From a virus (Duplodnaviria; Heunggongvirae; Uroviricota; Caudoviricetes), in the IMG/VR virus record IMGVR_UViG_3300047388_000185, positions 128,738 to 192,737 of that record: a stretch of DNA of 64,000 bases. The stretch is one strand, 5' to 3'. The notes beneath the pieces are model-generated. The model worked only from the letters and a program-made list of their open reading frames with translations, was not told the DNA's origin and did no database searches. This document shows, piece by piece, positions 1,141 to 60,017 of this stretch. A program made the position numbers and the translations under genes. Each line of letters begins with the position of its first letter. Position 1 is the stretch's first letter.

Positions 1141-1149
1141 TGGTATAAG
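1141..1149 (+). promoter_or_regulatory. TGGTATAAG promoter-like motif (extended -10-like), copy 1
   Basis: exact 9-mer in an intergenic gap 85 nt upstream of the 1226 ORF; one of 13 identical copies. Confidence 0.5.
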
Positions 1150-1225
1150 TAATTATCGTCAAGTATTATCTTGACGCCACAAAGGAAAGGGCGTAGTCTC
1201 TTTCTTTTTAGAAAGTTCAATTACA

Positions 1226-1465
1226 ATGTCTACCCCCTTCGCTCTTGCCATTTTCCTTGCTACGTTCGCTCTGGCAGCAGTTCCAGCCAGTCCACCAAAT
1301 TCATATCCTCCGGTCACAGAAAAAGAAGCCCGTAGTATCCTCACGATTCTCGGCCATCACTGTGACGGAACTGGCGCGATCGATTCTCTCGCCGTTGCGA
1401 CTGATGGCGCAGGCCCGCATTTGATAACTTGGAACAACGAAGAGCTTTGTGGGAAAAGGTCTTAA
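1226..1465 (+). CDS. small secreted/signal-peptide protein
   Basis: N-terminal hydrophobic signal-like segment (ALAIFLATFALAAVPA). Confidence 0.45.
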   Translation: MSTPFALAIFLATFALAAVPASPPNSYPPVTEKEARSILTILGHHCDGTGAIDSLAVATDGAGPHLITWNNEELCGKRS

Positions 1466-1490
1466 ACAATAATCCCCTAATCGGTTTTAC

Positions 1491-1808
1491 ATGGACTATC
1501 TAGACTACGATAATTCTAATCCAGGCTTACCAGGTGTATTTCGAGTAGGAGAACTTGAAGGGTCGACTGAGGGCAGAGGTTACTATCGAAAGTGGGATGG
1601 GCAAAGCTGGTATATGGTGTCGTACTCGGACACAATCTTATCGGCCCGGTTAAAAGATAAGAAATATGGATATGCCTGTGATGGTGAAACGAAACTATTC
1701 TACGTGGCTGATCTAGAAGGTAATCTAGTCGAACCTCGAGAAGCTCGGCGCATTGGGGATCCGCTTTGGAATTCCAGACCCGAACCTGAACAACTGGAGC
1801 TATTTTGA
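1491..1808 (+). CDS. small protein, paralog family A, C-terminal QLELF clamp-binding-like motif
   Basis: ends ...EPEQLELF*; shares the RKWDG..WY core with the next three ORFs. Confidence 0.6.
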   Translation: MDYLDYDNSNPGLPGVFRVGELEGSTEGRGYYRKWDGQSWYMVSYSDTILSARLKDKKYGYACDGETKLFYVADLEGNLVEPREARRIGDPLWNSRPEPEQLELF

Positions 1809-2095
1809 CGTATGATCTTAGGCACCCTGGTCCAGCTGGATACTATCTCTTTCGATACTCCGATGGAGCTAAAGCCTACCACCGCAAATGGGATGATGGT
1901 CACTGGTGGTATGGAAATCAACCGGAAACTACCCTAAAACAACTAGTAGGGAAGAAAACTGATGCCGTGCCAGACTGGAGGATAAACGAGTGGATCAAAC
2001 AGCGACACAGCGTAGAATTAGTCGCAGATCTTCACGGAAATCCGATTGCGACTGAGACCCATCCTATTCAAATCCAACTGGACTTATTCGAGTGA
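1805..2095 (+). CDS. small protein, paralog family A, C-terminal QLDLFE
   Basis: ends ...IQIQLDLFE*; YHRKWDDGHWWY core; ATGA overlap with the upstream ORF. Confidence 0.6.
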   Translation: MTYDLRHPGPAGYYLFRYSDGAKAYHRKWDDGHWWYGNQPETTLKQLVGKKTDAVPDWRINEWIKQRHSVELVADLHGNPIATETHPIQIQLDLFE

Positions 2096-2346
2096 AATAC
2101 ACAGAAGTCACAATTCCAGGGATATATGCATTCCTACTGCCGGACGGGACCGTGGACTGGTATCGGAAGTTCGATGGAATCAATTGGTATACCGGTCATG
2201 GTAGTCCAAAAAAGGCTGCCAAGGTAGATAGTGAGGCTGATAGTGAGAGAGTTTCACGTTGGGCAGCCCAGTACAGTCTAGTTGAGCACGCGGCGGATAT
2301 CAATGGAGATCCCTGGGCCGAATTTATTCAACCCATTCAAACTTAA
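2092..2346 (+). CDS. small protein, paralog family A; QLDLF motif cut off by an in-frame TAA
   Basis: WYRKFDGINWY core; ORF ends ...IQPIQT* but the same frame continues LDLF* (caa ACT TAA ctg gac tta ttc taa). Confidence 0.5.
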   Translation: MKYTEVTIPGIYAFLLPDGTVDWYRKFDGINWYTGHGSPKKAAKVDSEADSERVSRWAAQYSLVEHAADINGDPWAEFIQPIQT

Positions 2347-2360
2347 CTGGACTTATTCTA

Positions 2361-7350: not shown

Positions 7351-7497
7351 GTTATGCCCGGACTTCACCGAAACGCTTGCAACTAAGGTAAATTAAGCCC
7401 TGGAAATATTCAGGCCTAAAGCCAAGTCAAGCGCCACGTAAGTGAAGTTCGGGCACCACTCGCCCGTTTCTTTTTGTTCAACAATATCAGTCGATAC

Positions 7498-7506
7498 TGG
7501 TATAAG
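7498..7506 (+). promoter_or_regulatory. TGGTATAAG promoter-like motif, copy 3
   Basis: 12 nt upstream of the GTG 7519 start and overlapping its AAGGAG RBS. Confidence 0.45.
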
Positions 7507-7518
7507 AAGGAGTTAGTC

Positions 7519-9938: not shown

Positions 9939-9979
9939 TTTCGAAAACCAGCCCTACAGTTCAATAATACTGTAATTGT

Positions 9980-9988
9980 TGGTATAAG
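9980..9988 (+). promoter_or_regulatory. TGGTATAAG promoter-like motif, copy 4
   Basis: precedes the ORF-free tRNA-like region at 10000-10320; upstream palindrome TACAGT..ACTGTA. Confidence 0.45.
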
Positions 9989-10099
9989 GAATTGTAAGAC
10001 AGAATATGCCCTGAAAGCTCTGACGGTCCTGTGGCTCAAAGCAGGCGAACGTTGAATACCTCAGTGGATGTCCGGACTGAAGCTGAGGTATTTGACATC

Positions 10100-10159
10100 A
10101 TTCGAGAGCAGCGCAAAGATAAAGCGTATGCGGTGGTTCGAATCCACCTCGGGGCGCCA
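10100..10159 (+). ncRNA. tRNA-like 3' element: T-arm GGTGG-TTCGAAT-CCACC plus acceptor 3' strand plus CCA; no matching 5' half found
   Basis: canonical T-loop and ...TCGGGGCGCCA; no complementary 5' acceptor within 90 nt upstream. Confidence 0.3.
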
Positions 10160-10229
10160 TAAATCGCTAGGGACAAAACAACCTGACTGCCCGTGTCGAG
10201 TCGGGCCGATCCATTTTCTCCTTCTTTTT

Positions 10230-10309
10230 GGTTGTGTAAGCTCAGGGGCAGAGCTCGACAATGCCGGCTGTACAAAATCGGTGCGATGGTTCTAGTCCAT
10301 CCACATCCA
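10230..10309 (+). ncRNA. atypical tRNA-like element
   Basis: acceptor GGTTGTG/CACATCC with a 3:70 T.T mismatch; D-arm AGCT-CAGGGGCAG-AGCT; T-arm GATGG-TTCTAGT-CCATC; anticodon arm could not be folded canonically. Confidence 0.3.
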
Positions 10310-10599
10310 TCAGTTTCTTTTTGGTTTTCGACCTTACTGGAAAACCAGTTTTATACCAATCGATCATTCCTCTTTTCGAGGTTGTTCTTTTTCGTTGTTG
10401 TGACTTCAGTGTCGCGTATGCAACTCCCCTGTGCATTCATATAGCCAACGCTTTCAGCGTAACGCCACGGATGTGGTAGGCCTAATGAATAGGGTTTGAG
10501 ATCGGTTGGTTTTCCAGTGCGGTTTTCGCGCTACAGCAGTTCTGGTGAACTTAAGTAACTCCAGCTTGTTGTTAATGTTTCTTTAGCTAAAGGTATAAA

Positions 10600-11409
10600 A
10601 TGAGTCTGCAAAACAAGTTCATGAATCGCATGTTCCGTCGGATCTCGGGCGTGGTCATCGATGCTCTGTCGGGCAAGGTCGGCATCAAGACGGACGACGG
10701 CGTGTTCACCTGCGAACTCACCGGTTCGGGAGCCACGCTCTCGCACGAAATCTCGGTCAACATCCTCGACGGCCTGAGCTTCAACGTTCCGGGCTTCGCC
10801 AGCCAAGTCGAATTCGACAAGGTCAAGGCGGGTGACCTGGTCGTCAATGACAAGGGCATCGGCGGCTGGGTTGTGGGCAAGACGGCCAAGGCACTGAAGC
10901 TGGCCGACCACACCGGCTCGGTCAAGACTTATCAACCGCCGAAGGTCACCATCATGGGTGGCGCTGGTCCGAGCGGCGTGCTGGTCGTCCAGACCCTGTT
11001 CTCCCTGACGGGCTCGGCTGAAGGCGCTGCTGGCATCGGCCAAATGCTCCCGATGTTGATGCTTCTGGGTGACGGCAATGATTCGAAGCTGGATTCGATT
11101 CTGCCTCTGATCCTGATGCAAGGCGCAACCGGTGGCGCTGCCGCTGGTGGCCTGCAAAGCATCCTGCCTTTCCTTCTGATGAAGGACGGCGGTCTGGGTG
11201 GCGGCAACAGCAAGCTGGACAAGCTCCTGCCCCTGCTGGCCATGGGTGGCCTGGGCGGCGCTGGCGCGGCTGGCGGCGCGATGAATCCGATGCTGCTGAT
11301 GGCCCTGATGGGTGATGGCGACATCTTCGGTGGTTCGTCGGCTGCCAAGGTGGCTCCGGCCCTCCAACGCAACGGTGCTCCTCAGCTCCGGAACGTCGGC
11401 AGCTGGTAA
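10600..11409 (+). CDS. Gly/Leu-rich repeat protein
   Basis: repeats ILPLILMQG, ILPFLLMKDG, LLPLLAMGG, MLLMALMGDGD; high-GC segment. Confidence 0.5.
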   Translation: MSLQNKFMNRMFRRISGVVIDALSGKVGIKTDDGVFTCELTGSGATLSHEISVNILDGLSFNVPGFASQVEFDKVKAGDLVVNDKGIGGWVVGKTAKALKLADHTGSVKTYQPPKVTIMGGAGPSGVLVVQTLFSLTGSAEGAAGIGQMLPMLMLLGDGNDSKLDSILPLILMQGATGGAAAGGLQSILPFLLMKDGGLGGGNSKLDKLLPLLAMGGLGGAGAAGGAMNPMLLMALMGDGDIFGGSSAAKVAPALQRNGAPQLRNVGSW

Positions 11410-11510
11410 GTCAAATCCAGTCGGGAGACTGGTTGAGTGAGTGAAACTGGGACTGGCTTCGACTGGTCCCAGTTTTCCTTTTGCTTCTCTTTTTATATTT
11501 GGATAATACA

Positions 11511-12146
11511 ATGTCAATCTTTGACGCACTCTTCGGCCGGAAAACTCCCGAACTGAAAACGATCCCGCAATGGGAAGACACAGCTCCTCCGGTTCTAGAA
11601 ATTCATCCGGACGCGAATTTCGAGCCCGTCGCCCTAGCCGCAGCTTGGCCGTTCCCGAGCGCCGCATCTCATCCTGAGCCGATCGTTGAAACGGAAACCA
11701 AGCCCCTCGTCGTCAACACTGCCAAGCTGGCCCAGCACCATGCTGCCCTTGCAGAAGAACGCAAAGCCCTCAAGCAATACCTGAAGGAAATCGTTCAATC
11801 GGCTTCGGAGCACGGCATCGAGTTCGTCCATGTCGGAACGACGACCTTTGCCTGGCGCTATGCAACTTCGGCCGAAGAAGGCTACGTTCGCAACAAGCGC
11901 GTCATCCACATCTCGACGGCTGTCTGCAATCCCGCAGATCAGTTCGCCAAGTGGCACGGTAGTGCTATCGCTGCGGAGAACATGCTAGATGGCAAGTTCA
12001 TCACATTGCGGATCGATTCGGGGTATAAGAGCCCACGGGATGCGATCAATACGATGGGCTTGGTGACCTGGACGTCCGAGCAAATGCACGAGGCGTTGGA
12101 TCAAATTGCCGCGAAAAAGGCCGAACTTTCTAAAGGATGGAACTAA
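11511..12146 (+). CDS. hypothetical protein
   Basis: ATG 11511; upstream extension is less likely. Confidence 0.45.
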   Translation: MSIFDALFGRKTPELKTIPQWEDTAPPVLEIHPDANFEPVALAAAWPFPSAASHPEPIVETETKPLVVNTAKLAQHHAALAEERKALKQYLKEIVQSASEHGIEFVHVGTTTFAWRYATSAEEGYVRNKRVIHISTAVCNPADQFAKWHGSAIAAENMLDGKFITLRIDSGYKSPRDAINTMGLVTWTSEQMHEALDQIAAKKAELSKGWN

Positions 12147-12148
12147 TC

Positions 12149-12871
12149 ATGGCAAAACAGGCATCATGTCCCAAGCCAAGAGTCCCGACGCTCTACAAAG
12201 TCTTGTTCGACGGCAAGTCGTGCAACGGGGGGAGCTACGAGTGGGACACGTCAGGCGGAGTCAATCTGCTTCCAGCGAATCAGCGCCAGCTACCCCTGAA
12301 ACATTGCAGCGTCGGATTTCACCTGACCACGGACTGGAAGCGTTGGTATAAGTTCGGTCGGGACGTCTACCGAGCTACGGTTCCGGGCGACGAAATCTTG
12401 GTTAAACGAGATGGGAGCGTCCGCTGTGAGGACAAGGTCGTTGTCAGGTCCTGCCGACTATTCGACAAGAACGCCGATCCTCAAGTCCGCCTGTTGAATC
12501 AGTTCTACGACGACGCAATTCTGGTTCGTGACGGCTTCGAGGCAGCACGTCGTCGTCGGAAAGAGAAGACGGCTCCGAGGGGGACGGTGCTTCTGCCAGC
12601 CAATGGACATACCGGAGGTCTCTTCTCGCTGAAGGCATTTGGGTCCAGTTGGTATGTCCAGTCCCGGCTGCACGCCAGCGAGGAGCATTTCGGTGAGTAC
12701 TACTATCGATTCCGAGGCACCATCTATTTCATCTGCACCGCCCTAATTAAGTCCGAAGAAGGCACGATGACGGAAGCCGAGAAGAAGTCGGTCCACGACG
12801 TGTGGAACCTATGGAAGGCTGGTTGGATCGTGCACGGAACGAATAAAGCCGGGAAGTACGTCGTTTCTTGA
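12149..12871 (+). CDS. hypothetical protein
   Basis: AAGGA RBS before ATG 12149. Confidence 0.45.
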   Translation: MAKQASCPKPRVPTLYKVLFDGKSCNGGSYEWDTSGGVNLLPANQRQLPLKHCSVGFHLTTDWKRWYKFGRDVYRATVPGDEILVKRDGSVRCEDKVVVRSCRLFDKNADPQVRLLNQFYDDAILVRDGFEAARRRRKEKTAPRGTVLLPANGHTGGLFSLKAFGSSWYVQSRLHASEEHFGEYYYRFRGTIYFICTALIKSEEGTMTEAEKKSVHDVWNLWKAGWIVHGTNKAGKYVVS

Positions 12872-12890
12872 CGTGACCGGGGAAACCCGG

Positions 12891-12897
12891 TTATAAT
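12891..12897 (+). promoter_or_regulatory. TTATAAT -10-like element (variant of the TGGTATAAG motif) upstream of tRNA-Thr
   Basis: GGTTATAAT sits 28 nt before the tRNA 5' end and is preceded by the hairpin CCGGGGAAACCCGG. Confidence 0.35.
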
Positions 12898-12925
12898 CAA
12901 TCTTTTCGGGGCGAAAGCTTCGTAT

Positions 12926-12996
12926 GCCCTCTTAGTTCAGTGACAGAACAATTGCCTTGTAAGCAAAAAACGGGAGTTTGATTCTCTCAGGGGGCA
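12926..12996 (+). tRNA. tRNA-Thr (anticodon TGT)
   Basis: acceptor GCCCTCT/AGGGGGC; D-arm GTTC-AGTGACA-GAAC; anticodon loop CTTGTAA; T-arm GGGAG-TTTGATT-CTCTC; CCA encoded. Confidence 0.7.
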
Positions 12997-13013
12997 CCAT
13001 TTAAAGGACTTTC

Positions 13014-13466
13014 ATGACGAAAGTTGAAGAGAAGAAGGAAGAGTTCAAGCCAATTCCCAACGGCGCAATCTACGTCTTCGGATCCAACGAAAGTGGCATT
13101 CATGGGTCGGGAACGGCCCGTACTGCCAGGGAAGACTACGGTGCCATCATGGGCAACGGCTGGGGACTTCAGGGCAAGAGCTTTGCCATCCCCACGAAGG
13201 ACTGGGATATCAACACGCTAACCTACGGCGCTGTTGAATTCTACGTAGAACGTTTTATTGCCTTTGCACTTTCTAGGCCAAAAATGACGTTCTACGTCAC
13301 GAAGATTGGGTGCGGGCTTGCTGGATTAAATGAAGAAATAATCAAGCGGATGTTCATAGGTGCTCCTGAGAATTGCATTCTCCCGTACGGTTGGGAGCCC
13401 CCGGAATCGAAAGGTTACACTCATGGTCCAGCCCGCCCTCCTGCTGGACGGGCAATGACGAAATGA
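13014..13466 (+). CDS. conserved Gly-rich protein (motif FGSNESGIHGSGTA...GNGWGLQGKSFAIPTK), function unknown
   Basis: distinctive Gly-rich motif; Rossmann-like fold suspected but family not named. Confidence 0.45.
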   Translation: MTKVEEKKEEFKPIPNGAIYVFGSNESGIHGSGTARTAREDYGAIMGNGWGLQGKSFAIPTKDWDINTLTYGAVEFYVERFIAFALSRPKMTFYVTKIGCGLAGLNEEIIKRMFIGAPENCILPYGWEPPESKGYTHGPARPPAGRAMTK

Positions 13467-13568: not shown

Positions 13569-13590
13569 AGAGGCTTTGGCCTCTTTTTTA
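13569..13590 (+). terminator. rho-independent terminator
   Basis: hairpin AGAGGC-TTTG-GCCTCT followed by TTTTTT. Confidence 0.6.
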
Positions 13591-13612
13591 GATTACAAGA
13601 AATGAGAATACA

Positions 13613-14053
13613 ATGCATAAAATTGCAATTATAAAGATAACTGAAACGAACCGATACGATACGGAGGGTGTAAATAGAGACTCCAAAATCATCGAGAGCA
13701 TTACGGAATGGACCGAAGTTTCTAACGAAGAAATGGCCGCGCTTCGTCACTTTGAATCCCTGCGACGCTATACAAATGATAAGTTCATCCTACTTGAACA
13801 ACCAACTAACGTTAAAGAATTTGTCGCCAATACGGTATCAAGTTATGTAAAGGCCGCCCAAGAAGCCAAAAAGAAGGCTGATATCGTTGCAGCCAAAGCC
13901 AAGAAGGAAGCGGCTGATAGAGCTGTAAAAGCTAAGGAAAAGGCGGAGGCCAAGGAACGAGATCAACTCAAGAAGCTACTGGTTAAGCATGGATCAAGTA
14001 TTGGACTAACAGCGCCTATGGTCGAAGCCTCCGATAAGTCAACAAAAGCTTGA
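13613..14053 (+). CDS. Lys/Ala-rich coiled-coil protein
   Basis: AT-rich ORF with the AKKKADIVAAKAKKEAADRAVKAKEKAEAKERD segment. Confidence 0.45.
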   Translation: MHKIAIIKITETNRYDTEGVNRDSKIIESITEWTEVSNEEMAALRHFESLRRYTNDKFILLEQPTNVKEFVANTVSSYVKAAQEAKKKADIVAAKAKKEAADRAVKAKEKAEAKERDQLKKLLVKHGSSIGLTAPMVEASDKSTKA

Positions 14054-14058
14054 ATAAT

Positions 14059-14067
14059 TGGTATAAG
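14059..14067 (+). promoter_or_regulatory. TGGTATAAG promoter-like motif, copy 5
   Basis: 25 nt upstream of the transglycosylase start. Confidence 0.5.
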
Positions 14068-14091
14068 ATAGTACGGAAAGGATTCGCACGC

Positions 14092-14911: not shown

Positions 14912-15202
14912 ATGAAACACTCCGCCATTCTTCAGACACAAAACCACGCAATTGTAGCAGCAAACGCACTACCTGGAAATCCTGCTTTGGCAGCCTCCGC
15001 TGTAATGATCCAGGACGTCAGCTTCAGTGACGCCTGTCGGATCTCAGCTGAGGTTGCTCGACACGGGCTTCCTGCTTTAGTATGGGAACCGTCCATTACT
15101 GTCCCAGCTGAACCAGGTCCTCCCGTGCAGACGCAACAAGCTACAACTCCGGAAGTCCCCGCCTCCACTGAACCTCCACCTGAACCCGAACAGCCGGCTT
15201 AA
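14912..15202 (+). CDS. hypothetical Pro-rich protein
   Basis: 96-aa ORF. Confidence 0.4.
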   Translation: MKHSAILQTQNHAIVAANALPGNPALAASAVMIQDVSFSDACRISAEVARHGLPALVWEPSITVPAEPGPPVQTQQATTPEVPASTEPPPEPEQPA

Positions 15203-15218
15203 ACAATCGGCCAATTCC

Positions 15219-15227
15219 TGGTATAAG
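15219..15227 (+). promoter_or_regulatory. TGGTATAAG promoter-like motif, copy 6
   Basis: intergenic, 58 nt upstream of the 15285 ORF. Confidence 0.5.
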
Positions 15228-15284
15228 AGTGTACGGATACACCTTTTTCTTTTTCAACAATAACTATAAGGGAGTTGAACAACG

Positions 15285-20880: not shown

Positions 20881-21156
20881 ATGCGGCCAGATAGATTAGA
20901 AATAGGTCAGATATGGAGGACGCAGGGTGGGATACGGGTTATCATTTCGGAAATTAGATCATACGGTCTGGATGATACGAGAAGAACTGGATCCTTAACC
21001 TTTGCCCGTTCCAATAATGGATGCTACATAGGGGCTGGTCCAATGACAGGCCTTTACTGTAGTTTCGATCGAAGCATAGATAACCCGGGGAGTGATACGC
21101 ATGACTTGGTTTTTCCAGAGTTTGTCCAGGCTGTGCAACTGTCTTTGTTTGACTAG
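20881..21156 (+). CDS. small protein, paralog family B, C-terminal QLSLFD
   Basis: ATG 20881; ends ...AVQLSLFD*. Confidence 0.55.
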   Translation: MRPDRLEIGQIWRTQGGIRVIISEIRSYGLDDTRRTGSLTFARSNNGCYIGAGPMTGLYCSFDRSIDNPGSDTHDLVFPEFVQAVQLSLFD

Positions 21157-21162
21157 GAAATC

Positions 21163-21441
21163 ATGAGACCAGAAAAGCTTGAAACCGGTCAAAAGTATCT
21201 TAACGGTCGCGGTGGTGAAGTGACTATCCACGGTAAAATTGATACCATTCACGCCAGCATTCAGAAACTAGGATCGACATTCTCTATTAATTCAACTCAT
21301 GGTTGGTTTTACGGGGATGGTCCGATGATTGGAAAATGGGTGCTCTCATCTCGACAACTTGTCGAAGTTGAAAAATATGACGAAGATCTTATCCTTCCCG
21401 ACTTCGTTGAACCAAGTTTTCAATTATCTCTATTCGACTAA
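21163..21441 (+). CDS. small protein, paralog family B, C-terminal QLSLFD
   Basis: YGDGPMIGKWV core; ends ...SFQLSLFD*. Confidence 0.55.
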   Translation: MRPEKLETGQKYLNGRGGEVTIHGKIDTIHASIQKLGSTFSINSTHGWFYGDGPMIGKWVLSSRQLVEVEKYDEDLILPDFVEPSFQLSLFD

Positions 21442-21462
21442 TTCAATAAAACAATAAGTTCG

Positions 21463-21471
21463 TGGTATAAG
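21463..21471 (+). promoter_or_regulatory. TGGTATAAG promoter-like motif, copy 7
   Basis: intergenic, 97 nt upstream of the 21568 ORF. Confidence 0.45.
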
Positions 21472-21567
21472 CGTTTGTCCGACAACGTCAATGCTTTGCC
21501 AGACCATTCGTGAACGTTGCGTGTGCAGCGTTTAATTCTCAGCGCTCCTACTATTTTGGAGTACTAA

Positions 21568-21768
21568 ATGCAAAAACAATATCTCGGCCCTATTCCAGCG
21601 CGCCGACCCAACTGTCCTATTTTGGAGGCTCTTACTTCTCGTGGCTACGATATGTGTCAAAAGGAGAAGCTGGAAAATACTGATCTGGATACCCTTGGTG
21701 TGTCTCACAGTCATCGGTCCTACATCGAACATGATTTCGCTGGGGTGAGTGACTCATGGCTGGATTGA
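21568..21768 (+). CDS. small hypothetical protein
   Basis: 66-aa ORF. Confidence 0.3.
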   Translation: MQKQYLGPIPARRPNCPILEALTSRGYDMCQKEKLENTDLDTLGVSHSHRSYIEHDFAGVSDSWLD

Positions 21769-21836
21769 CCAATCTTTGGAATTGGGACGCATGGGTTGCT
21801 CCCCCACCTGACGCCGAAGACGATGCTGACTAGTAT

Positions 21837-22673
21837 TTAGTCAAACGGGTTAACTCCACCCAAAGCTGATTTAAGTGACTCTAGCGCCTCTTTACGCAGG
21901 GTCTTGACCTTCTCCTTGCTGAGCTTCAATTCAGCAGCTACTTGTGCAACGTTCCGGTCTTCTCCATCGAAGATACCGAAGGACAGTTCGATGACCTCCC
22001 GTTGGTCATCCGGTAGTGCAGCGATTCGCTGGTGAAGACGGTCTCGGTCAAGTCTGGTGTTAACTTCATCCTCGATAGGATTGATCTCAAAGGCTGGATC
22101 TTCATCCATGTCTGAGATGTAGAACGTAAGAAAACGAGTTCCCCACAATTCTCGGAGATCTTTCTCCTGGATATCTGGAAACTCGTTTTTTAGCCCTTCA
22201 AATGTAATATCAGGCCGCTTTTCCAAGATCTTTTGAATACGAGCTGAAAGCTGTTGACGCCAAATCGGGAGAGAAACTATTCTTTGCATCGCCATGCTAT
22301 AGAGCATTCTTTGACGGGTCCAGAATCCTGCATAAGTTAAGTATCTATATCCGCTTTCCGGTTTGAACTTCTCGAATGCAACTAGTAGACCATCGTTACC
22401 AGCAGCGATTAGTTCTTCGAATACATCGGGATCATTCTTGGAATACTTCTTAGCTTCTTTGAAGACAAATCTGAGATTAGATTCTATGATCCGGGATCGG
22501 ATTTGGAGCTTTCTCTTCTCTGACGTGGTCTCGTCTTGGTATTCTAAGAAGAGATCTAACTCTTCTTCCCGAGTGAGCATCGGGGTCTTGCTGATTTTCT
22601 CGTAATAAATGGAAAGGGACATTTGACGCATTATAGTAGAAAGTGTATGACCGTGCAACTTAATAATAATCAA
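21837..22673 (-). CDS. RNA polymerase sigma factor (sigma-70 family)
   Basis: region 2 ELIAAGNDGLLVAFEKFKPESGYRYLTYAGFWTRQRM; region 4 HTH AELKLSKEKVKTLRKEAL; the only convincing minus-strand gene. Confidence 0.8.
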   Translation of the reverse strand: MIIIKLHGHTLSTIMRQMSLSIYYEKISKTPMLTREEELDLFLEYQDETTSEKRKLQIRSRIIESNLRFVFKEAKKYSKNDPDVFEELIAAGNDGLLVAFEKFKPESGYRYLTYAGFWTRQRMLYSMAMQRIVSLPIWRQQLSARIQKILEKRPDITFEGLKNEFPDIQEKDLRELWGTRFLTFYISDMDEDPAFEINPIEDEVNTRLDRDRLHQRIAALPDDQREVIELSFGIFDGEDRNVAQVAAELKLSKEKVKTLRKEALESLKSALGGVNPFD

Positions 22674-22674
22674 A

Positions 22675-23082
22675 ATGACAATTCAATCGTTACTAACACT
22701 TATAAATCCCGACGTGGTAAACGGATTTTTCGAATTCGGAGGGGCAGTCTCAATTGGGTACAACAGCTTCCGAGTTTGGAAGGACAAATCAGTGAAGGGG
22801 GTATCTCTCTGGAGCACTGGATTCTTTCTGGTATGGGGATGTTGGAACCCGTTCTGGTACGGAAGTCTGAGCCAACCGTACTCACTGACCGGGGGTATCG
22901 CTATCGTCCTAGCGAACGTCGTCTGGCTAAGCCTGATGTTGAAATTCAGGAATGGGACTGGAACGGGAGCCCCGATCCCTACTGAGCCAGCGGTAATGGA
23001 CTTCGATACTATCTGTGAAATGTTGGATAACAATGGGACTCTACCCACCACTCCTATGATTCCGATTGACACGAAGAAGTGA
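22675..23082 (+). CDS. membrane protein
   Basis: several hydrophobic helices; start is 2 nt from the divergent sigma gene start. Confidence 0.4.
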   Translation: MTIQSLLTLINPDVVNGFFEFGGAVSIGYNSFRVWKDKSVKGVSLWSTGFFLVWGCWNPFWYGSLSQPYSLTGGIAIVLANVVWLSLMLKFRNGTGTGAPIPTEPAVMDFDTICEMLDNNGTLPTTPMIPIDTKK

Positions 23083-23320
23083 AATCGTATATACTGGGTA
23101 CATGATTAAGGTTCAATACAAATTAGACGAAGAAAAGGGTTTGGCTCTTTTCTCGTTCGAAGGTAGTCGTGAGGAAGATTACGAGGCGCTGGACAACCTC
23201 TGCATTGCTTTGACTCAACGGCTTGAGTCTCGTGCGGCTATGGTCAGCAGCAATCGTCTAGTAGTGCATTTCAAGGGTGTGGTTACTCCGACTTCCGATT
23301 CACCGACAGTATACGAATAA
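23066..23320 (+). CDS. hypothetical protein
   Basis: 84-aa ORF. Confidence 0.35.
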   Translation: MTRRSEIVYTGYMIKVQYKLDEEKGLALFSFEGSREEDYEALDNLCIALTQRLESRAAMVSSNRLVVHFKGVVTPTSDSPTVYE

Positions 23321-23354
23321 TTACAACAAATTACATTAATTTTACCAGCAAATA

Positions 23355-23561
23355 TTGGTAGAAGAAGATATGGAAAAGAACTCGTCCGTCGTGCTCACCA
23401 AAGACGAAGTCGAACAAGTCAAAGCTGGTAAAATCCCAATGAGGATTGCAGCAACTTGGGGCTTTACTTTAGAAGAGCTTACAGCTATAATCAATGCTGG
23501 CACATACACCGTCACTTCTTGGGAAGCCTCTCTTCCCGGATCTGAGGGTTTCAATCTCTAA
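23355..23561 (+). CDS. hypothetical protein
   Basis: 68-aa ORF. Confidence 0.35.
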   Translation: MVEEDMEKNSSVVLTKDEVEQVKAGKIPMRIAATWGFTLEELTAIINAGTYTVTSWEASLPGSEGFNL

Positions 23562-33534: not shown

Positions 33535-33752
33535 AAACAAGAATACACGTTAATCAACACGCCATCAAGGCCAATGCCAAGAATGGCACGAACGAACCCG
33601 TTCTGACAATCAAGACTTACAAAAGCAATACGTACGCGCACCGCGTTCAGATTAACGGGCCGTCACAAGTCGTGTATAGCCCGGACGATCCATTGAGTTG
33701 CGGAGCTAAGGTTTGGATTGAGACGGACGCGGAAGTCGTGGTTCAAGAATAG
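33531..33752 (+). CDS. hypothetical protein
   Basis: 73-aa ORF. Confidence 0.35.
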   Translation: MKTRIHVNQHAIKANAKNGTNEPVLTIKTYKSNTYAHRVQINGPSQVVYSPDDPLSCGAKVWIETDAEVVVQE

Positions 33753-33762
33753 ATAGAACAGT

Positions 33763-33771
33763 GGTATAAGA
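33763..33771 (+). promoter_or_regulatory. TGGTATAAG promoter-like motif, copy 8
   Basis: 5 nt upstream of ATG 33776. Confidence 0.45.
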
Positions 33772-33775
33772 GTAT

Positions 33776-34072
33776 ATGAGAAAAGTAACTATTAAACCCA
33801 AAATCGAAACTCTTACGTACCTCGACCTCTTCGACGCTATGTATTATGTCGAAGGACTTGGTCATCCTGGATTCAAAGAGAATTTCTGGGATGATATATC
33901 TGATGATATTCCAGGAAACGACTGTTACTGGAAATGGTATCCACCGAGCGAAGGGGAACTTCGATACCTGGAATCGAAAGAAGATAAGGGATCTTACGAA
34001 CGAGGTAGATTGTTTGGAGCAACGTTTGGTATCTCGGACCGTGATGGAATAGTATTCCACATCAGTTGGTGA
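33776..34072 (+). CDS. hypothetical protein
   Basis: 98-aa ORF. Confidence 0.4.
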   Translation: MRKVTIKPKIETLTYLDLFDAMYYVEGLGHPGFKENFWDDISDDIPGNDCYWKWYPPSEGELRYLESKEDKGSYERGRLFGATFGISDRDGIVFHISW

Positions 34073-35531: not shown

Positions 35532-36634
35532 TTTGTTCGAAGAGGGGCCAATTGCTCCGGTCAAGCCCCGGGGTATTGCTTCTTTAGAAAAAGCAAGAGT
35601 CAAGGAGGCAGAGTGGTTGTCGGAGAAACTGAAGTATGCTCCTACCATTGAGTTTATGCACGAGCTACCTGATGCACCTGATCGCATTACGTACGAGGAT
35701 TTTCCGTTCAACGATCTGAACATCTACGCTGGAGTTGACTGCATTGCAACCAGTGGCATCTTGGGAAAACTTTGGGGAGACCTGACGAAGACCGAGATGA
35801 TGAAGGTGCCGGACGCCAAGGGTAAGCCTCAGATAGTAGAAGCCCCTGCTGTTATCGACAGCGTGGTGGACGTAGAGATGCCGGCTCACGAGTTCATCTT
35901 GGACTTGGAAATCAACGGCATCGGGTACTCCGTGGCTCGTAACGAGTTCATCACGAAGAAGATGACGGCTGAGATCGAGGAGCTTGATGCTCGGATCTGT
36001 GAGTCCGTTGGCCGTCAATTGGACATGAACTCGGGCGCAGCATTGGCCAAGTACTTGTACGAGGAGCGTGGCTTTGACGTTCCGTTCAAGACGAAGAAGG
36101 GTGAGCCGGCGGTTGACGGGAATGCGTTCTTGACGATCGCGGGATTGGATCCGATGGGGAAGAGTCGGACTGCGAAGGATCCGACTTTGCAGTTCTTGGT
36201 GGATATGGCAAAGCGTCGGGATTTGAGTTCAGTTCGAGGGACGTTCTTGTCAAACTACGTCAAGGACTTCGTCAAGAGAGATGGGCGCGTTCACAGCTCG
36301 TATAACGCTTTTGGCACAAGTGGGTTTCGTATCAGTGGGGATACTCCAAATTTAACCCAACTACCTAGGTCTAAACACGGGTATAATATTCGGACATGTT
36401 ACACTACTCGTCCAGGATACGTGTTCATCAGTTTTGATTTCAGCAGTGCCGAAGTTAAAATTTTGAGTGCCGTTTCGAAAGAGCCTACGATGTTAAGGGC
36501 CATTCAAGACGGTCTGGATTTTCATACCTTCAGTGCGAGTTCCATGAGGGGAATTCCTTATGATGAAATGATGGGCGTGCTTTCGGACGAAAAGCATGAA
36601 AAATATAGAGAATACAAAGAGCTCCGTCAACTCT
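35518..36634 (+). CDS. family-A DNA polymerase, exon 1 (palm motif A, up to motif B)
   Basis: AAGGAG RBS before ATG 35518; motif A ISFDFSSAEVKILSAVS; the ORF ends ...ELRQLSK, aligning to PolA ...EQRRSAK. Confidence 0.6.
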
Positions 36635-37919
36635 CCAAAGTGTTAGAATAAGTTAGCACCTTTAGCGGGCGACCGCTATAGCAAATCCTGTTAATTGAAA
36701 ATAGATAATTGTGAGAAAAATACCCAAAGAGGATATCATAGAGAAGGCTACGAATCTTCTAAAACAAGAAGGTCGTTATCTAACTCAACGTGAAATTTCT
36801 AAAGGTATTGAAATATACGAAGGCGTGTTTCGAAAAAACGACATTGACACTGAAAAATTAGCCAATGAACTTGGATTTTTCAAGTCGGATTTATTCTACG
36901 CAGAATCTGCCAAATATCTGGATTTGTATAAAAAGTACACAATCGAGAAGGCCAGTGTAGTTTCTATTCCTGAATTTTCCGATTACATTGGTATTCCTGC
37001 CTGGAAGATTTATAAGTTTCAATGGGATTTAGAAGCCGTTTACGAAGAATGTACGAGCACTTGGATTAGTGAAGAACAAGCTTTGATTCTTTATAAAAAC
37101 ATGATTAAAGAAGCGAAATCAAGTACGCCTTTAATTAAGTTTAGTCAAGAAACCGGCATGAGTTTTCATCGTCTTTATCATTTTGGCTGGGATATCAAAT
37201 CTATCCATGAGGAGTGTGGGGTCACAGGTCGAATGTTTGATCGGATGACCTCCTTACCTCAAGCAAATCAAATTCTGAAAAGTTTGATAGAAAAGAAAAA
37301 TCGATACGTTACCAGAAAAGAACTCGCTTCTTATCTAGGTGTCTCATCGAGTTTACTATCAGTCTATAAACTTCCTTTAGAAAATATTAATGCTGAGTAC
37401 AGATTTTATCCCCGAGCCAAAGGCTACGAAATGTTTGTAGGCGAGGTTTTCTCAGAGATGTTCCCTATGTATTCGTTAGTAAAACAGAAGACATATTCGG
37501 ATTGTCGGGCAAGTGAATCAAAACGTAGTGTTTTAAAGTTTGATTATTACTGTCCGGAATTAAATCTTCTATTGGAAGTTGACGGTCCAGGTCATTTCAA
37601 CCCTGCGTGTAAATATTATGCGCCAGAGGTTGTGATCCGGGATCAAATCAAAAATGAATATTGTCAACAAAACGGGATTCCTTTAATCCGAATCCCCTAC
37701 GAACCAAAGTACTTTAAATCTCACGTTCAAAGTTATCTATCGGGAATCTCCTCGCCTGAAAAGGACGGACAACCCGCAGCCAAGCCTGATGAAAATCAGG
37801 AAGGTTCAACGACTAGTCGAAAGACGTAGGGCTCAAGAGAGCTCGAAACGCAGGGGCACTCTAGTAGTGCGTGATATAGTCTGAACTCATGGGAAACCAT
37901 GAGAGGTTTTGGGGAATCG
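36635..37919 (+). mobile_element. intron-like insertion (group I intron suspected) splitting DNA polymerase motif B; carries a homing-endonuclease ORF
   Basis: AT-rich 1.3-kb insert; 5' exon can end in T (CTCT|), insert ends in G (..GGAATCG|), and joining the ORFs restores in-frame RQLSK-TATNIVTFSILYG. Confidence 0.5.
36711..37829 (+). CDS. intron-encoded PD-(D/E)xK (DUF559/Vsr-like) homing endonuclease
   Basis: C-terminal core KFDYYCPELNLLLEVDGPGHF (E-VDG-x-H signature); GTG start; AT-rich. Confidence 0.5.
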   Translation: MRKIPKEDIIEKATNLLKQEGRYLTQREISKGIEIYEGVFRKNDIDTEKLANELGFFKSDLFYAESAKYLDLYKKYTIEKASVVSIPEFSDYIGIPAWKIYKFQWDLEAVYEECTSTWISEEQALILYKNMIKEAKSSTPLIKFSQETGMSFHRLYHFGWDIKSIHEECGVTGRMFDRMTSLPQANQILKSLIEKKNRYVTRKELASYLGVSSSLLSVYKLPLENINAEYRFYPRAKGYEMFVGEVFSEMFPMYSLVKQKTYSDCRASESKRSVLKFDYYCPELNLLLEVDGPGHFNPACKYYAPEVVIRDQIKNEYCQQNGIPLIRIPYEPKYFKSHVQSYLSGISSPEKDGQPAAKPDENQEGSTTSRKT

Positions 37920-38557
37920 CCAAAACCGCAACAAACATTGTGACATTCTCGATTTTATATGGCTCGTCTGAGGGGGGGATTGCTTTGCAATTAGGCATCT
38001 CCAAAGAAGAAGCCATTCGCCTTATGACCCTTTATTTTGATACCTTTCCGAAGGTTAAGGATTACATTGAAAAATCTCATCTAACGGCCAAGTGGAACCA
38101 GTTCGTTATCACGCCACTTGGTCAACGCAAACGGGAGTTTGGTACATTCGAGTGTTTCCGTCGCACAGCTGCTTACAATGCCGCTCTCCGCAATGCTCAG
38201 AATGTGATCATTCAATCGACGACTTCATCGGTCGGTTTGATGACCTTCACGGAGCTGAATCGACGGATTAAACCGTTTGGCGCAGTTAGTACTTGCTCCG
38301 TGTACGACTCTTTGGAAATCGAATGTCCATTGGAGAAAGCAGCCGAAGTCATTGCCGTCTGCTATGACACTTTGGATAACTGGCCTGTCGAAAACTTCGA
38401 TTGGTTGGAGCTACCAATCGGCTGCGAAGGAGACGTCGGAGTCAGTTGGGGAGAAACCAAGATCGTCCACCCCGGAGTCACGCAAGCTGAGGTCGAAGCT
38501 CTGGTTCAAAAGACCCGAGAAGAGTCCATCAAGACGTTTGGTGAATGGCTTCAATAA
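37920..38557 (+). CDS. family-A DNA polymerase, exon 2 (motifs B and C)
   Basis: motif B (K)TATNIVTFSILYGSSEGGIALQLGIS; motif C VYDSLEIECP; no RBS ahead of the in-frame ATG, consistent with splicing. Confidence 0.6.
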
Positions 38558-38570
38558 CCCGTTACAATTG

Positions 38571-38579
38571 TGGTATAAG
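38571..38579 (+). promoter_or_regulatory. TGGTATAAG promoter-like motif, copy 9
   Basis: preceded by the palindrome ACAATTGT; upstream of the 38654 ORF. Confidence 0.5.
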
Positions 38580-38653
38580 TAAGTAAGCCCAAAAATAAGC
38601 CTTTACCTAATCTGTAAGGGCTTATTCCCATTCAACTCTTGTTAAGGAATATC

Positions 38654-42242: not shown

Positions 42243-42264
42243 ATTCAACTAATTACAACATCTT

Positions 42265-42273
42265 TGGTATAAG
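42265..42273 (+). promoter_or_regulatory. TGGTATAAG promoter-like motif, copy 10
   Basis: 12 nt upstream of the 42285 ORF. Confidence 0.45.
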
Positions 42274-42284
42274 GATATACACAC

Positions 42285-57542: not shown

Positions 57543-58194
57543 TGTAAACAGTAATGAAAAGGGCAGCGGGGCCCGTTACAACGAGGGGAAGCCGGACTTC
57601 TCTCTGATCCCGTTCTGTACAATGGAAGACGAAGCTCGAGTCTGGGCTTACGGCAAGAAGAAGTACGCCGCTTGGAATTGGTGTAAGGGCATGGATTGGG
57701 ACGTCCCATTCGCCTGCATGATGCGTCATATGGCTAAGTGGCAAATGGGAGAAGAGAACGATTCGGAATCGGGGCTGCCTCACCTAGCTCATGCCCTGTG
57801 TAATCTTCGTATGTTGACGCTGTTTGCGAAGACGTACAAAGAAGGGGACACTCGGCCGACTAAATGGTTGGAGGATTTCTTTGATAAGGCTCCAGTTCAG
57901 ACTGATATTCATTCCAGTCTACAGAACAACAATCTTCCAACTACGGCGGGGGTCCGAGATAATGGTATGATGACTACGAAACCTCAATCTCCTCCTCCTC
58001 AAATCTTGAGGGGTGTATCGGAGGGAATCTCTCCAACCCACAGCCCAGATTATATAAGGGGAGAGGTAGATTCCAGGAGTATTATTCAACGGGCTTTGGA
58101 TTCGGATCATCCTACGGCCGTGACCAATAACCCTTTCCAAATTGGTCCTGAAACCTATGGGTGGACAGCAAGTGCAACAAACAAAACTAAGTAG
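57529..58194 (+). CDS. dATP/dGTP diphosphohydrolase-like (DUF5664-like) protein
   Basis: RYNEGKPDFSLIP...YGKKKYAAWNWCKG...RHMAKWQMGEENDSESGLPHLAHALCN pattern; family assignment is from memory. Confidence 0.45.
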   Translation: MAVGDVNSNEKGSGARYNEGKPDFSLIPFCTMEDEARVWAYGKKKYAAWNWCKGMDWDVPFACMMRHMAKWQMGEENDSESGLPHLAHALCNLRMLTLFAKTYKEGDTRPTKWLEDFFDKAPVQTDIHSSLQNNNLPTTAGVRDNGMMTTKPQSPPPQILRGVSEGISPTHSPDYIRGEVDSRSIIQRALDSDHPTAVTNNPFQIGPETYGWTASATNKTK

Positions 58195-58429
58195 CCTTAT
58201 CGAGGCTCTAGTCAACATCGTCATTGGTTTCACAATCAATTACTTTGTTAACCTGATGGTATTTCCATTGTTTAACATGCACATTAGTGCGTTGAACAAC
58301 TTCTACATGGGATTGATTTATACTCTTATTTCTGTCGTACGTAGTTATGCCTTACGTCGCTGGTTTAATGCTCATCTGCACGATGCTGCTTCTTCGGTTG
58401 CCGCTTGGTGGGTGAGGGTTAGAACATGA
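58142..58429 (+). CDS. small membrane protein
   Basis: hydrophobic helices; overlaps the previous ORF. Confidence 0.3.
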   Translation: MVLKPMGGQQVQQTKLSSLIEALVNIVIGFTINYFVNLMVFPLFNMHISALNNFYMGLIYTLISVVRSYALRRWFNAHLHDAASSVAAWWVRVRT

Positions 58430-58737
58430 CAGCTCAACTAGCAATCATCGGCTCTCAATGTGCAGGTCATTGCACCGGGCACTCCGGTGGTAGAAACTGG
58501 ACGGGGGTAATCTCAACCACGCCTCAGTCCATTGGAACAGCCGGTGGCACTGCGCTGGCTCTGATCGGATCCACTGGGGTGGCAGACTGTGGACATACGT
58601 TTACAGTCATCGATGGGTCTACGATTGCAACTGAGGCTGGAGTTGGCTTAGCCATTGTAGGTAGTCATTGTCCGACTTCACCCGGGGGTAGTACGGGAGT
58701 TATAACCACGGGGTATGCGTATGGAACGACCGCCTAA
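58426..58737 (+). CDS. PAAR-like repeat protein (tail-spike tip candidate)
   Basis: three repeats IIGSQCAGHC / LIGSTGVADCGH / IVGSHCPTSPGG resembling PAAR motifs. Confidence 0.4.
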   Translation: MTAQLAIIGSQCAGHCTGHSGGRNWTGVISTTPQSIGTAGGTALALIGSTGVADCGHTFTVIDGSTIATEAGVGLAIVGSHCPTSPGGSTGVITTGYAYGTTA

Positions 58738-59305
58738 AGTAGGTTTTGGATTTGATCCCGCCTGGAAAACTTTGGGATCTGCAGTTGTTCAAGAGACGAC
58801 TAAACCCTTTAAATTCGACGTTATCTTCTCGAGTACGACTTCCCCCGGGGATGATCCAAGTGGTCCCTGCTTCCACGTTGCTTCATTAGTGGAAAGCATG
58901 TTGGCGTACGCTGGACAGAATCCTGCGAATGAAATCTCAGTCTGCCTAGAGCGTTTCGTCTCGTATGGGAATGTTCGATCTTCTCATACAGAGGAGATAA
59001 CGAGAATCATTGGGCAGTTAGAAATGAAGGTAGAGCTTACTCCAGGTTTATATGGGCCTTTGATGCTCAAAGCTATTGACTGGAAGACAAAGTTATGTCA
59101 GACTCTTGTTAAATATGCTGGCTTTGATAATCCCTCCGCTTCTCTAGACAAGAAGTTTTCTATCGCTGCAGCTAAACATATCTCTACTACTCCCGATGAC
59201 AAAATCTCAGACCACGAAGCCGATGCGATTTGCCTGGCTGCATACCCTCACATCCTGGCTCAAGTTCACGCCGCCAGAACCAGCGGACGAGCATCGCTGG
59301 GTTAA
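58715..59305 (+). CDS. RuvC-like Holliday-junction resolvase
   Basis: GFGFDPAWKTLGSAV (Asp 1), ERF (Glu), SDHEADAICLA (Asp/His) catalytic signature. Confidence 0.6.
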   Translation: MRMERPPKVGFGFDPAWKTLGSAVVQETTKPFKFDVIFSSTTSPGDDPSGPCFHVASLVESMLAYAGQNPANEISVCLERFVSYGNVRSSHTEEITRIIGQLEMKVELTPGLYGPLMLKAIDWKTKLCQTLVKYAGFDNPSASLDKKFSIAAAKHISTTPDDKISDHEADAICLAAYPHILAQVHAARTSGRASLG

Positions 59306-59531
59306 AAGCCCGCCTGGGGCTGAATTTCCCAGGCACATCCTGGAAGATGACGTACAAGAAGAAGAGTTGCCAGTCTTCGATATTCAGAAAGATGTGCTCG
59401 TTCTTCCACTTGGTTTTGACACTAGCAAGTACAGTACTAAAAGCAAGCTTACGCTTGAACTACTTGATGAAATGGGAAAAGTCATATACATCTCTTCTTT
59501 AACTAAACCAGCAATTATAAAGGTTCGCTAA
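59196..59531 (+). CDS. hypothetical protein (uncertain; overlaps the RuvC 3' end)
   Basis: 111-aa ORF whose stop overlaps the dCMP deaminase start (TAATG), suggesting coupling; no start downstream of the overlap. Confidence 0.25.
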   Translation: MTKSQTTKPMRFAWLHTLTSWLKFTPPEPADEHRWVKSPPGAEFPRHILEDDVQEEELPVFDIQKDVLVLPLGFDTSKYSTKSKLTLELLDEMGKVIYISSLTKPAIIKVR

Positions 59532-60016
59532 TGAATACTAATAGTCCCAAATGGGATTTTCGCTTTTTAGACCAGGCCAAACTTATCTCTACTTGGTCTA
59601 AGGATCCCAGCACTCAAACAGGTGCTGTCATCGTTGCTCCCAATGGCGCAGTTGTTTCTCAAGGCTTCAACGGCTTTCCTGCAAATATGGAAGACAAGCC
59701 TGAACTGTATGCCAACCGAGAAGAGAAGTATAGTCGTATCGTTCACTGTGAAATGAATGCGGCTATGTACGCTCAACGTAGCCTGGCTGGATGCACTCTG
59801 TACACGTACCCGTTCATCTCGTGTGATCGTTGTTTCGTTCATATGCTTCAGCTGGGTATTACTCGGTTTGTAGCACCTAAGGCGACTGAAGAACAACTGA
59901 CTCGTTGGGGTCCGGCGTTTGAGAGGGTTCGAGGATATGCTAAAGAAGCTGGCGTTGAGTTGATTGAAGTTGATTACAATACATTACGTTCAATTCCGGG
60001 CGAAAAGCTGGTATAA
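59531..60016 (+). CDS. dCMP deaminase
   Basis: zinc-binding HCEMNA ... PCxxC (PFISCDRC). Confidence 0.8.
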   Translation: MNTNSPKWDFRFLDQAKLISTWSKDPSTQTGAVIVAPNGAVVSQGFNGFPANMEDKPELYANREEKYSRIVHCEMNAAMYAQRSLAGCTLYTYPFISCDRCFVHMLQLGITRFVAPKATEEQLTRWGPAFERVRGYAKEAGVELIEVDYNTLRSIPGEKLV

Positions 60017-60017
60017 G
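60009..60017 (+). promoter_or_regulatory. TGGTATAAG promoter-like motif, copy 13
   Basis: overlaps the dCMP deaminase stop; 71 nt upstream of the 60088 ORF. Confidence 0.45.

Follow-up and report, generated by a model that had tools for sequence, protein, structure and literature searches.

The SPO1 cascade runs from the host sigma-A to gp28 and then to gp33/34, and in phiEco32 the early genes are served by sigma-70 and the middle/late ones by gp36 at AATGTA (PMC12276001, PMC13401047). According to reviews, phage multisubunit RNA polymerases come without sigma homologues, and sigma-encoding large phages come without polymerases. Phage-specific promoter families are already well known; of the one described here, built on the nine-base motif TGGTATAAG, the searchable literature held no description, GGTATAAG matching primers and oligonucleotides only. 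The motif was studied in 64,000 nucleotides (nt) of a tailed-virus genome (Caudoviricetes; IMG/VR record IMGVR_UViG_3300047388_000185, positions 128,738 to 192,737), here called the window, which is an early/replication region lying almost wholly on the + strand. The original prediction had read the motif as a phage-specific promoter family resembling an extended -10 element and had named a sigma-70-family gene of the window as its possible cognate factor. The predicted family is strongly supported by a second conserved block, a start-site position, orientation and conservation. The pairing with the sigma factor is plausible and the leading hypothesis, although it is not established, and a second sigma factor together with a virion RNA polymerase forms an equally coherent alternative.

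Number, architecture and conservation of the motif

The window contains 14 exact copies of TGGTATAAG, every one of them on the + strand; dinucleotide-preserving shuffles yielded 0.22 copies on average and never more than 2. The excess and the single orientation are as originally claimed. The 13 copies then listed are all intergenic and constitute the family, 11 of them at the exact coordinates given and two at slightly different ones (33762 instead of 33763, and 48034 instead of 48044). A fourteenth copy, at 12344-12352 (+), had been overlooked; it lies inside the open reading frame (ORF) 12137-12871, so the claim that every copy is intergenic holds for 13 of 14, and the proposed count over coding regions and the - strand gives one copy in the former and none on the latter. 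This copy reads in frame as TGG TAT AAG (W-Y-K), and no TTCAA block was found upstream of it in the flank alignment; for these reasons the simplest view is that it arose by chance or from the coding sequence, and it is not a member of the family. Measured from the motif end to the best start codon, the distances are 5-96 nt, in agreement with the 5-105 nt first reported. A frequent position behind terminators had been overstated, since a canonical intrinsic terminator immediately precedes only the copies at 7498 and 48034.

Alignment of the flanks gives the full signal as TTCAAy, a spacer of 17-18 nt ending in TGG, the hexamer TATAAG, and T-purine 5-6 nt later. This architecture is present at the 13 intergenic copies and at one diverged copy at 23356, all facing downstream genes. 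The spacer is 17 or 18 nt (7 of the 14 sites each). Five nt past the motif, 13 of the 14 sites have T, and the next base is a purine in all 14, A in 11 cases. A position weight matrix made from the 13 sites returned a single extra candidate, the 23356 copy, with 25 bits against 11.5 for the next best, and nothing comparable on the minus strand of the window. Similarly, none of the one-mismatch variants of TGGTATAAG in the window other than 23356 carries an upstream -35 block. The gaps in which the sites lie are short, and the -35 block frequently reaches into the final codons of the preceding gene.

This geometry is that of a bacterial promoter with a -35 element, an extended -10 element and a start site, from which we infer that the sites are active promoters beginning at or near the conserved purine. 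At two of them (33762 and 23356) an ATG stands exactly at the predicted start position; the messenger RNAs (mRNAs) would therefore be leaderless, which supports the start-site assignment. TGG precedes TATAAG at all 13 exact sites, providing the TG of an extended -10 element, and position 2 of the -10 hexamer is A at every one. Position 6 is G at 13 of 13, where sigma-70 has T, and a generic sigma-70 promoter scan requiring T at this position recovered none of the family sites. The -35 hexamer, at 17 or 18 nt, is TTCAAy compared with TTGACA, its conserved G being replaced by C.

For the window a matching contig exists in a public sequencing run, and a blastn search of deposited phages with its primase gene gave no DNA match, its relatives being reachable at the protein level only. 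At least 230 metagenomic homologues of the window sigma factor were found, the longest of their contigs measuring 188 kb, and among cultured phages Salmonella phage Arash (41% identity) and the Vibrio phages D69, D181 and D148 (38% identity) come closest by this protein. The identical motif is kept in relatives with proteins only 38-55% identical. In the relative L122/L152 (sigma 55% identical), the exact 9-mer is found on the block strand with TTCAAC upstream; L122 has five copies in 17.8 kb, always opposite to the sigma strand. In Arash, an unbiased count placed CTTATACC(A), the reverse complement of the motif, as the most over-represented k-mer; the early-block strand carries 30 copies of the motif and the opposite strand a single one, each lying shortly before a ribosome-binding site, and all 30 block-strand copies have G at the last -10 position, the G of the extended -10 being invariant and its T variable in the Arash lineage. 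The form in D69 is TTCAAy-N14-TG(T/G)TATAAGTAA. In 45 further loci with 39-55% G+C, 186 copies of GGTATAAG were counted on the block strand compared with 6 on the opposite one. This conservation across relatives indicates a functional element kept clade-wide, independently of genome composition and host. A composite scan of viral contigs with TTCAAY-N16-18-TGGTATAAG returned more than 120 mostly single matches at a chance-like level and was uninformative.

The sigma gene, the phage RNA polymerase and the reading of the promoters

The sigma-70-family gene of the window (21837-22622, -) encodes 261 amino acids with the Pfam domains Sigma70 r1.2, r2 and r4 and belongs to phrog_351. The gene predicted on the - strand is real, its start being most likely the ATG at 22622 and not position 22673, and no other clear gene of the window lies on that strand. 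The protein is primary-like, with best partial matches to RpoS/RpoD, and aligns to their structures at E of about 1e-22 (HMMER). In this alignment the core reading the -10 element is kept (TYAGFWTRQ compared with TYATWWIRQ), and the changes fall in region 3.0, which reads the extended -10 (PIWRQQL compared with PVHMIET), and in the recognition helix of region 4.2 (SKEKVKT compared with TRERIRQ). Work by Gardella and Siegele in 1989 and by Campbell in 2002 reportedly showed R584 and R588 of sigma-70 to read -35 positions 5 and 3, and the two Arg to Lys changes of the window sigma affect what we take to be these same residues. The two positions so contacted, 3 and 5, are exactly those that distinguish TTCAAy from TTGACA.

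Upstream of the sigma gene lies a promoter of the host-consensus type (22623-22658, -), composed of TTGCAC (22658-22653), 17 nt, TATAAT (22635-22630) and 7 nt to the ATG at 22622. No Shine-Dalgarno sequence precedes this ATG, so the sigma mRNA is probably leaderless. The sigma gene carries TTGnnn-17/18-TAnnnT in eight lineages, the other seven having TTGAAT-17 nt-TACAAT (L122), TTGCAT-17 nt-TATGCT (L172), TTGCTT-17 nt-TAAACT (L173), TTGCCA-17 nt-TATAAT (L174), TTGACA-18 nt-TATACT (L175), TTGCAT-18 nt-TACACT (L176) and TTGACT-17 nt-TACTAT (Arash). Since the gene block carries TTCAAy/TGGTATAAG and the sigma gene the canonical TTGnnn/TAnnnT, the phage uses both promoter types side by side. In all sigma loci examined except that of D69, the sigma gene alone runs antiparallel to the block; in D69, a terminator stands between it and the nearest upstream motif. 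A minus-strand ORF at 22683-23072 was considered as an operon partner and found unsupported, as the gene calls of L001 and L172 give a block-strand gene diverging from sigma. The gap between sigma and the next + strand gene is 52 nt and contains two divergent promoter-like sites, the TATAAT of the sigma gene (-) overlapping the TATAGT of TGGAAA-16-TATAGT (22610-22637) on the + strand in a shared AT-rich core.

In Arash, (C/T)TAAAATA is found about 25-35 nt before the starts of structural genes on the + strand (for example at 30632, 109248, 137630, 139406, 142676, 173498 and 180789), and in divergent gaps it abuts the reverse complement of the motif, as CTTATACC-CTAAAATA. The window, which has no structural genes, contains one copy (41578, +). 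This element looks like a T4-late-type promoter class. Thus, the clade has three separable types of predicted promoter, namely the motif, (C/T)TAAAATA and the canonical one before sigma.

The clade also encodes its own transcription machinery. In Gp206 of Arash, beta is fused to the N-terminal part of beta' and the catalytic ADYDGDA is intact; Gp216 is the C-terminal part of beta', and Gp10 is a second sigma-70-family protein, which has lost several -10-reading residues (TYATWWIRQ changed to THVYNWTRK). The polymerase genes are at 130093-134670 and 139441-141261 in Arash (OQ632216.1) and, on a contig of the window lineage (L152), at 10001-13390 and 20994-22817. The genes gp9-gp10 sit behind the only structural-strand copy of the motif, an arrangement conserved in eight loci. 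Gp206, Gp216 and Gp10 are among the most abundant proteins of Arash virions (PMC10585845). The presence of sigma factors and RNA polymerase in one clade contrasts with the reviews mentioned above, and the context is therefore less ordinary; the combination of a fused beta-beta'N, a separate beta'C and two sigma factors is absent from the jumbo-phage reviews consulted.

Here it is proposed that a window-type sigma factor reads the TTCAAy/TGGTATAAG promoters as part of a sigma cascade, a reading to which we give an even chance of being correct; that the reader is phage-encoded rather than of host origin is probable. Host RNA polymerase with its primary sigma would transcribe the sigma gene from its canonical promoter, and the phage sigma would then direct RNA polymerase to the motif promoters. 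Its region 2 would read TATAA, the altered region 3.0 the invariant G-G before TATAA, and the altered region 4.2 TTCAAy in place of TTGACA, with initiation at the conserved purine 6 nt past the final G. The genes transcribed by this class, in operons of about 1-10 kb, would be those of the one-directional block for early functions, nucleotide metabolism and replication, and the order of the cascade would be host sigma, window-type sigma and Gp10-type second sigma. The position of the gp10 gene behind the motif fits such a cascade, and it fits autoregulation as well. How much information the -35 block carries follows region 4.2 of the window-type sigma: it amounts to 6.2 bits in the window lineage and to 5.7 in D69, both with a canonical-like region 4.2, and to 2.8 bits in the Arash lineage, where this region is diverged and has no Pfam r4 match.

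Several observations weigh against this proposal. The correlation with region 4.2 involves three lineages only, and the region 3.0 residue (W or Q) does not covary with the base at -13, as the Arash lineage has Q and uses GG, the window lineage has W and uses GG, and D69 has Q and uses GT. The clade encodes its own multisubunit RNA polymerase and a second sigma, and such a polymerase, if injected, should be the one to read early promoters; gp196, the window-type sigma of Arash, was undetected in its virions (PMC10585845). The variant TGGTATAAT in Arash has T at the last -10 position, which is therefore tolerated at one or more sites; it occurs in tandem with TGGTATAGA upstream of gp251c, near the right genome end (180740-180790, -). 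Also, matches to the host consensus (at least 10 of 12) are not enriched over the window, with 7 and 8 per strand compared with about 5 after shuffling, so that the host-type class depends on its conservation upstream of the sigma gene.

Because Gp206, Gp216 and Gp10 abound in the virion and the polymerase genes are found on a contig of the window lineage, an injected polymerase with Gp10 is a serious rival as reader, although we consider it rather unlikely. The motif would then be the early promoter of virion-delivered Gp206 and Gp216 with a Gp10-type sigma, independent of the host polymerase, and the window sigma, made by the host enzyme, would serve another class, for example the late (C/T)TAAAATA. 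The intact catalytic motif of Gp206, its encoding in the window lineage too and the virion content described above agree with this, as do the about 30 uniform one-directional promoters per genome, which resemble the early sets of phiKZ type, and the motif upstream of gp9-gp10 could be positive autoregulation. However, Gp10 lost several residues that read TATAAT and yet TATAA is present in the motif, the strength of the -35 block follows region 4.2 of the other sigma, and the known phage multisubunit polymerases use no sigma-70 homologue. Moreover, the Gp10-type gene is documented in Arash and not in the window lineage, and detection in virions could be carry-over of abundant late proteins, as raised by the authors of the Arash study (PMC10585845).

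Reading by the host primary sigma, with the motif as a strong extended -10 early promoter and the phage sigmas serving later classes only, appears unlikely. The motif matches TGnTATAAx of the extended -10 at 8 of 9 positions, its spacing and start-site geometry are typical of sigma-70, the driven genes are of early/replication type, and the TGGTATAAT variant exists in Arash. The additional conserved features would in this case be phage-specific tuning, as in T4, whose early promoters have conserved features beyond the host consensus. The consensus of Salmonella, the host of Arash, is TTGACA/TATAAT, and sigma-70 requires T at the last -10 base, which is G in 13 of 13 copies in the window, in the 30 block-strand copies of Arash and clade-wide. 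Because this G at -7 and the G at -13 are invariant and the -35 element has C instead of its conserved G, host sigma-70 is unlikely to be the main reader. In addition, a canonical promoter is available before the sigma gene and is not used for the block, and the motif remains unchanged across 39-55% G+C and across Salmonella and Vibrio hosts. That the motif is no promoter at all but another strand-specific signal, such as an RNA-processing site, a replication or packaging signal or a mobile repeat, is most improbable, even if strand-specific intergenic repeats can have other roles: the two-block architecture with 17/18 nt and the T-purine at start-site distance are those of promoters, the sites lie immediately 5' of ribosome-binding sites or start codons, the divergent gaps of Arash pair the motif back-to-back with a second promoter-like element, and neither flanking repeat structure nor Rfam matches were found at the sites, all of which agrees with promoters only.

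Returning to the phage-encoded reader, it is tentatively possible that the enzyme at the TTCAAy/TGGTATAAG promoters is a viral multisubunit (fused beta-beta') RNA polymerase with a genuine phage sigma-70 subunit. If true, it would be the first viral multisubunit polymerase holoenzyme with a true sigma, and the motif would define the promoter of that polymerase across phages of about 165-190 kb infecting Salmonella, Vibrio and unknown hosts.

Individual sites and other elements of the window

All family sites are on the + strand. Promoter 1 (1121-1155) has TTCAAT at 1121-1126, 17 nt, TGGTATAAG at 1141-1149 and a predicted start at A 1155. Like promoter 6, it has a terminator-like hairpin just downstream of the motif: hairpins at 1157-1176 and 1181-1209, the second with a T-run, precede the ATG at 1226. 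The stretch 1157-1209, for which an Rfam search gave no match, could be a small RNA of roughly 55 nt or a transcription attenuator. Promoter 2 (2623-2658) has TTCAAT, 18 nt and TGGTATAAG at 2644-2652, and its gene starts at ATG 2691 with a Shine-Dalgarno sequence. Promoter 3 (7477-7512; TTCAAC, 18 nt, TGGTATAAG at 7498-7506) lies directly after an intrinsic terminator with hairpin and T-run at 7450-7475 and serves a GTG start at 7519. Promoter 4 (9960-9994; TTCAAT, 17 nt, TGGTATAAG at 9980-9988) precedes a small gene whose start is uncertain, at about 10068. In promoter 5 (14039-14073; (g)TCAACA, 17 nt, TGGTATAAG at 14059-14067; ATG 14092), the -35 block overlaps the end of ORF 13613-14053.

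Promoter 6 (15199-15254) has TTAAAC, 17 nt, TGGTATAAG at 15219-15227 and ATG 15285, and its terminator-like hairpin and T-run (15229-15254) span the predicted start site, so that this structure could stop transcripts arriving from upstream without forming in those begun at promoter 6. Promoter 7 (21442-21477; TTCAAT, 18 nt, TGGTATAAG at 21463-21471) serves the small gene 21568-21768 and is convergent with the 3' end of the sigma gene. At this junction, between the small-gene end at 21768 and the sigma 3' end at 21837, the segment 21741-21860 folds with -44.5 kcal/mol over 120 nt and may act as a terminator in both directions, keeping antisense transcripts from running into sigma. The probable diverged member (23336-23370) is composed of TTAATT, 17 nt and TGGTAGAAG at 23356-23364, with ATG 23370 placed 5 nt past the -10 element, in the same leaderless geometry as at 33762. 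The latter is promoter 8 (33742-33776; TTCAAG, 17 nt, TGGTATAAG at 33762-33770), whose ATG at 33776 coincides with the predicted start and whose mRNA is probably leaderless.

Promoter 9 (38550-38626; TTCAAT, 18 nt, TGGTATAAG at 38571-38579; ATG 38654) has a -35 block overlapping the stop of the C-terminal PolA fragment and a leader with a 13-base-pair hairpin (38594-38626). Promoter 10 (42244-42279; TTCAAC, 18 nt, TGGTATAAG at 42265-42273) is followed by ATG 42285, 11 nt past the -10 element. Promoter 11 (48013-48048; TTCAAT, 18 nt, TGGTATAAG at 48034-48042) lies directly after a terminator at 47986-48008, and its gene begins at ATG 48079 with a Shine-Dalgarno sequence. Promoter 12 (52476-52510; TTCAAC, 17 nt, TGGTATAAG at 52496-52504; ATG 52530) has a terminator about 100 nt before 52496. 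Promoter 13 (59989-60023; TTCAAT, 17 nt, TGGTATAAG at 60009-60017) holds the stop codon (60014-60016) of ORF 59531-60016 inside its TATAAG and is followed by ATG 60088 and then the transfer RNA (tRNA) cluster.

The T-tails of terminators in the clade recur as (T)CTTTTTAG, at 7467-7475, 13585-13592 and 48003-48008 in the window, at 17 sites in Arash and also in D69, and they often run into the TTCAAy block, forming compact terminator-promoter modules. The second strand-specific k-mer of Arash, CTAAAAAG, was considered as a promoter and rejected, being the reverse complement of this tail CTTTTTAG. A roughly 30-nt repeat, AAGGGTTTCTTTGTAACTTTTCGTGTAAC, has at least three intergenic copies in Arash (66593, 138695 and about 173450). 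A further promoter class behind the + strand terminators that lack the motif was also rejected, as their hairpins lead directly to a ribosome-binding site with its start codon; for the same reason these terminators are probably internal, leaky or attenuating.

Candidate sites of host type on the + strand include the following two. The GGTTATAAT variant originally noted before tRNA-Thr is indeed there, at 12889-12897; however, it is of the host-consensus type, with TTGACG as -35, and falls outside the family, being part of TTGACG-N18-TATAAT (12868-12897, 11 of 12 positions of the sigma-70 consensus) upstream of tRNA-Thr at 12926. The other candidate, TTGACA-N18-TATACT (23066-23095, 11 of 12), would restart the + strand block past the sigma locus.

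The genes encoded in the window include primase, helicase, PolA, class II ribonucleotide reductase, ThyX, a PD-(D/E)XK nuclease and six tRNA genes. The family A DNA polymerase, which has an N-terminal uracil-DNA-glycosylase-like domain, is found in three pieces (34191-35531, 35485-36651 and 37889-38557), with an HNH homing endonuclease gene (36711-37829) between the second and the third. The same fusion of uracil-DNA glycosylase and PolA is present in phage PaBG (PMC7412058). The sixth tRNA match, upstream of tRNA-Gln and tRNA-Asn (60922-61040, 119 nt, 39.8 bits with Rfam), is without an ARAGORN call and may be an intron-containing or otherwise atypical tRNA.

Significance and comparison with known systems

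With the motif, the operons of the early half can readily be mapped in a clade that has hardly been studied and that includes Arash-like phages, D69 and its relatives, and well over 100 metagenomic relatives. As the promoter breaks the TATAAT rule at a normally invariant last base, its use is easy to test, and in a clade with two sigma factors, an RNA polymerase and three promoter types, which polymerase and sigma read which promoter is now experimentally addressable. An orthogonal pair of sigma and promoter near the sigma-70 design may also serve engineering.

As in SPO1 and phiEco32, there is a phage protein of the sigma-70 family, one gene class has a sharply conserved promoter outside the host consensus, and the sigma gene itself stands behind a host-type promoter. 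Unlike in those systems, the promoter of the window is not a wholly different element, since TTCAAy...TGGTATAAG remains near the extended -10/-35 design, and the sigma factor is of RpoD/RpoS type, with regions 1.2 to 4, instead of minimal or ECF-like (extracytoplasmic function). Its gene is always antiparallel to the block and often leaderless, the clade adds an RNA polymerase and a second sigma, and dependence on the phage sigma is here a prediction, drawn from the residue changes and the correlation of region 4.2 with the -35 block.

With the extended -10 promoter (TGnTATAAT) the motif shares TG two bases before the hexamer, TATAA, the 17-18 nt to a hexamer starting with TT and a purine start 6-7 nt downstream. 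It differs in its last base, G and not T, in the 'n', which is always G (T in D69), and in the upstream hexamer, with C and A at positions 3 and 5 instead of G and C; its 13 identical nine-base copies are also far more uniform than host promoters. The T4 late promoter TATAAATA, read by gp55, is likewise a short AT-rich element similar to a -10, and the motif of Arash and D69 extends to TATAAGTA, one base from TATAAATA; nevertheless, the motif of the window has a -35 block and precedes early/replication genes, (C/T)TAAAATA being separate and on the structural-gene strand. The few dozen uniform one-directional promoters and a packaged polymerase of beta/beta' type are shared with phiKZ and AR9 (PMC7598289, PMC13282480), whose enzymes have no sigma-70 homologue and whose promoters are without a bipartite -35/-10 design, whereas the promoters described here are bipartite with sigma-type geometry, in a clade that has a single fused beta-beta' enzyme and two genes of the sigma-70 family.

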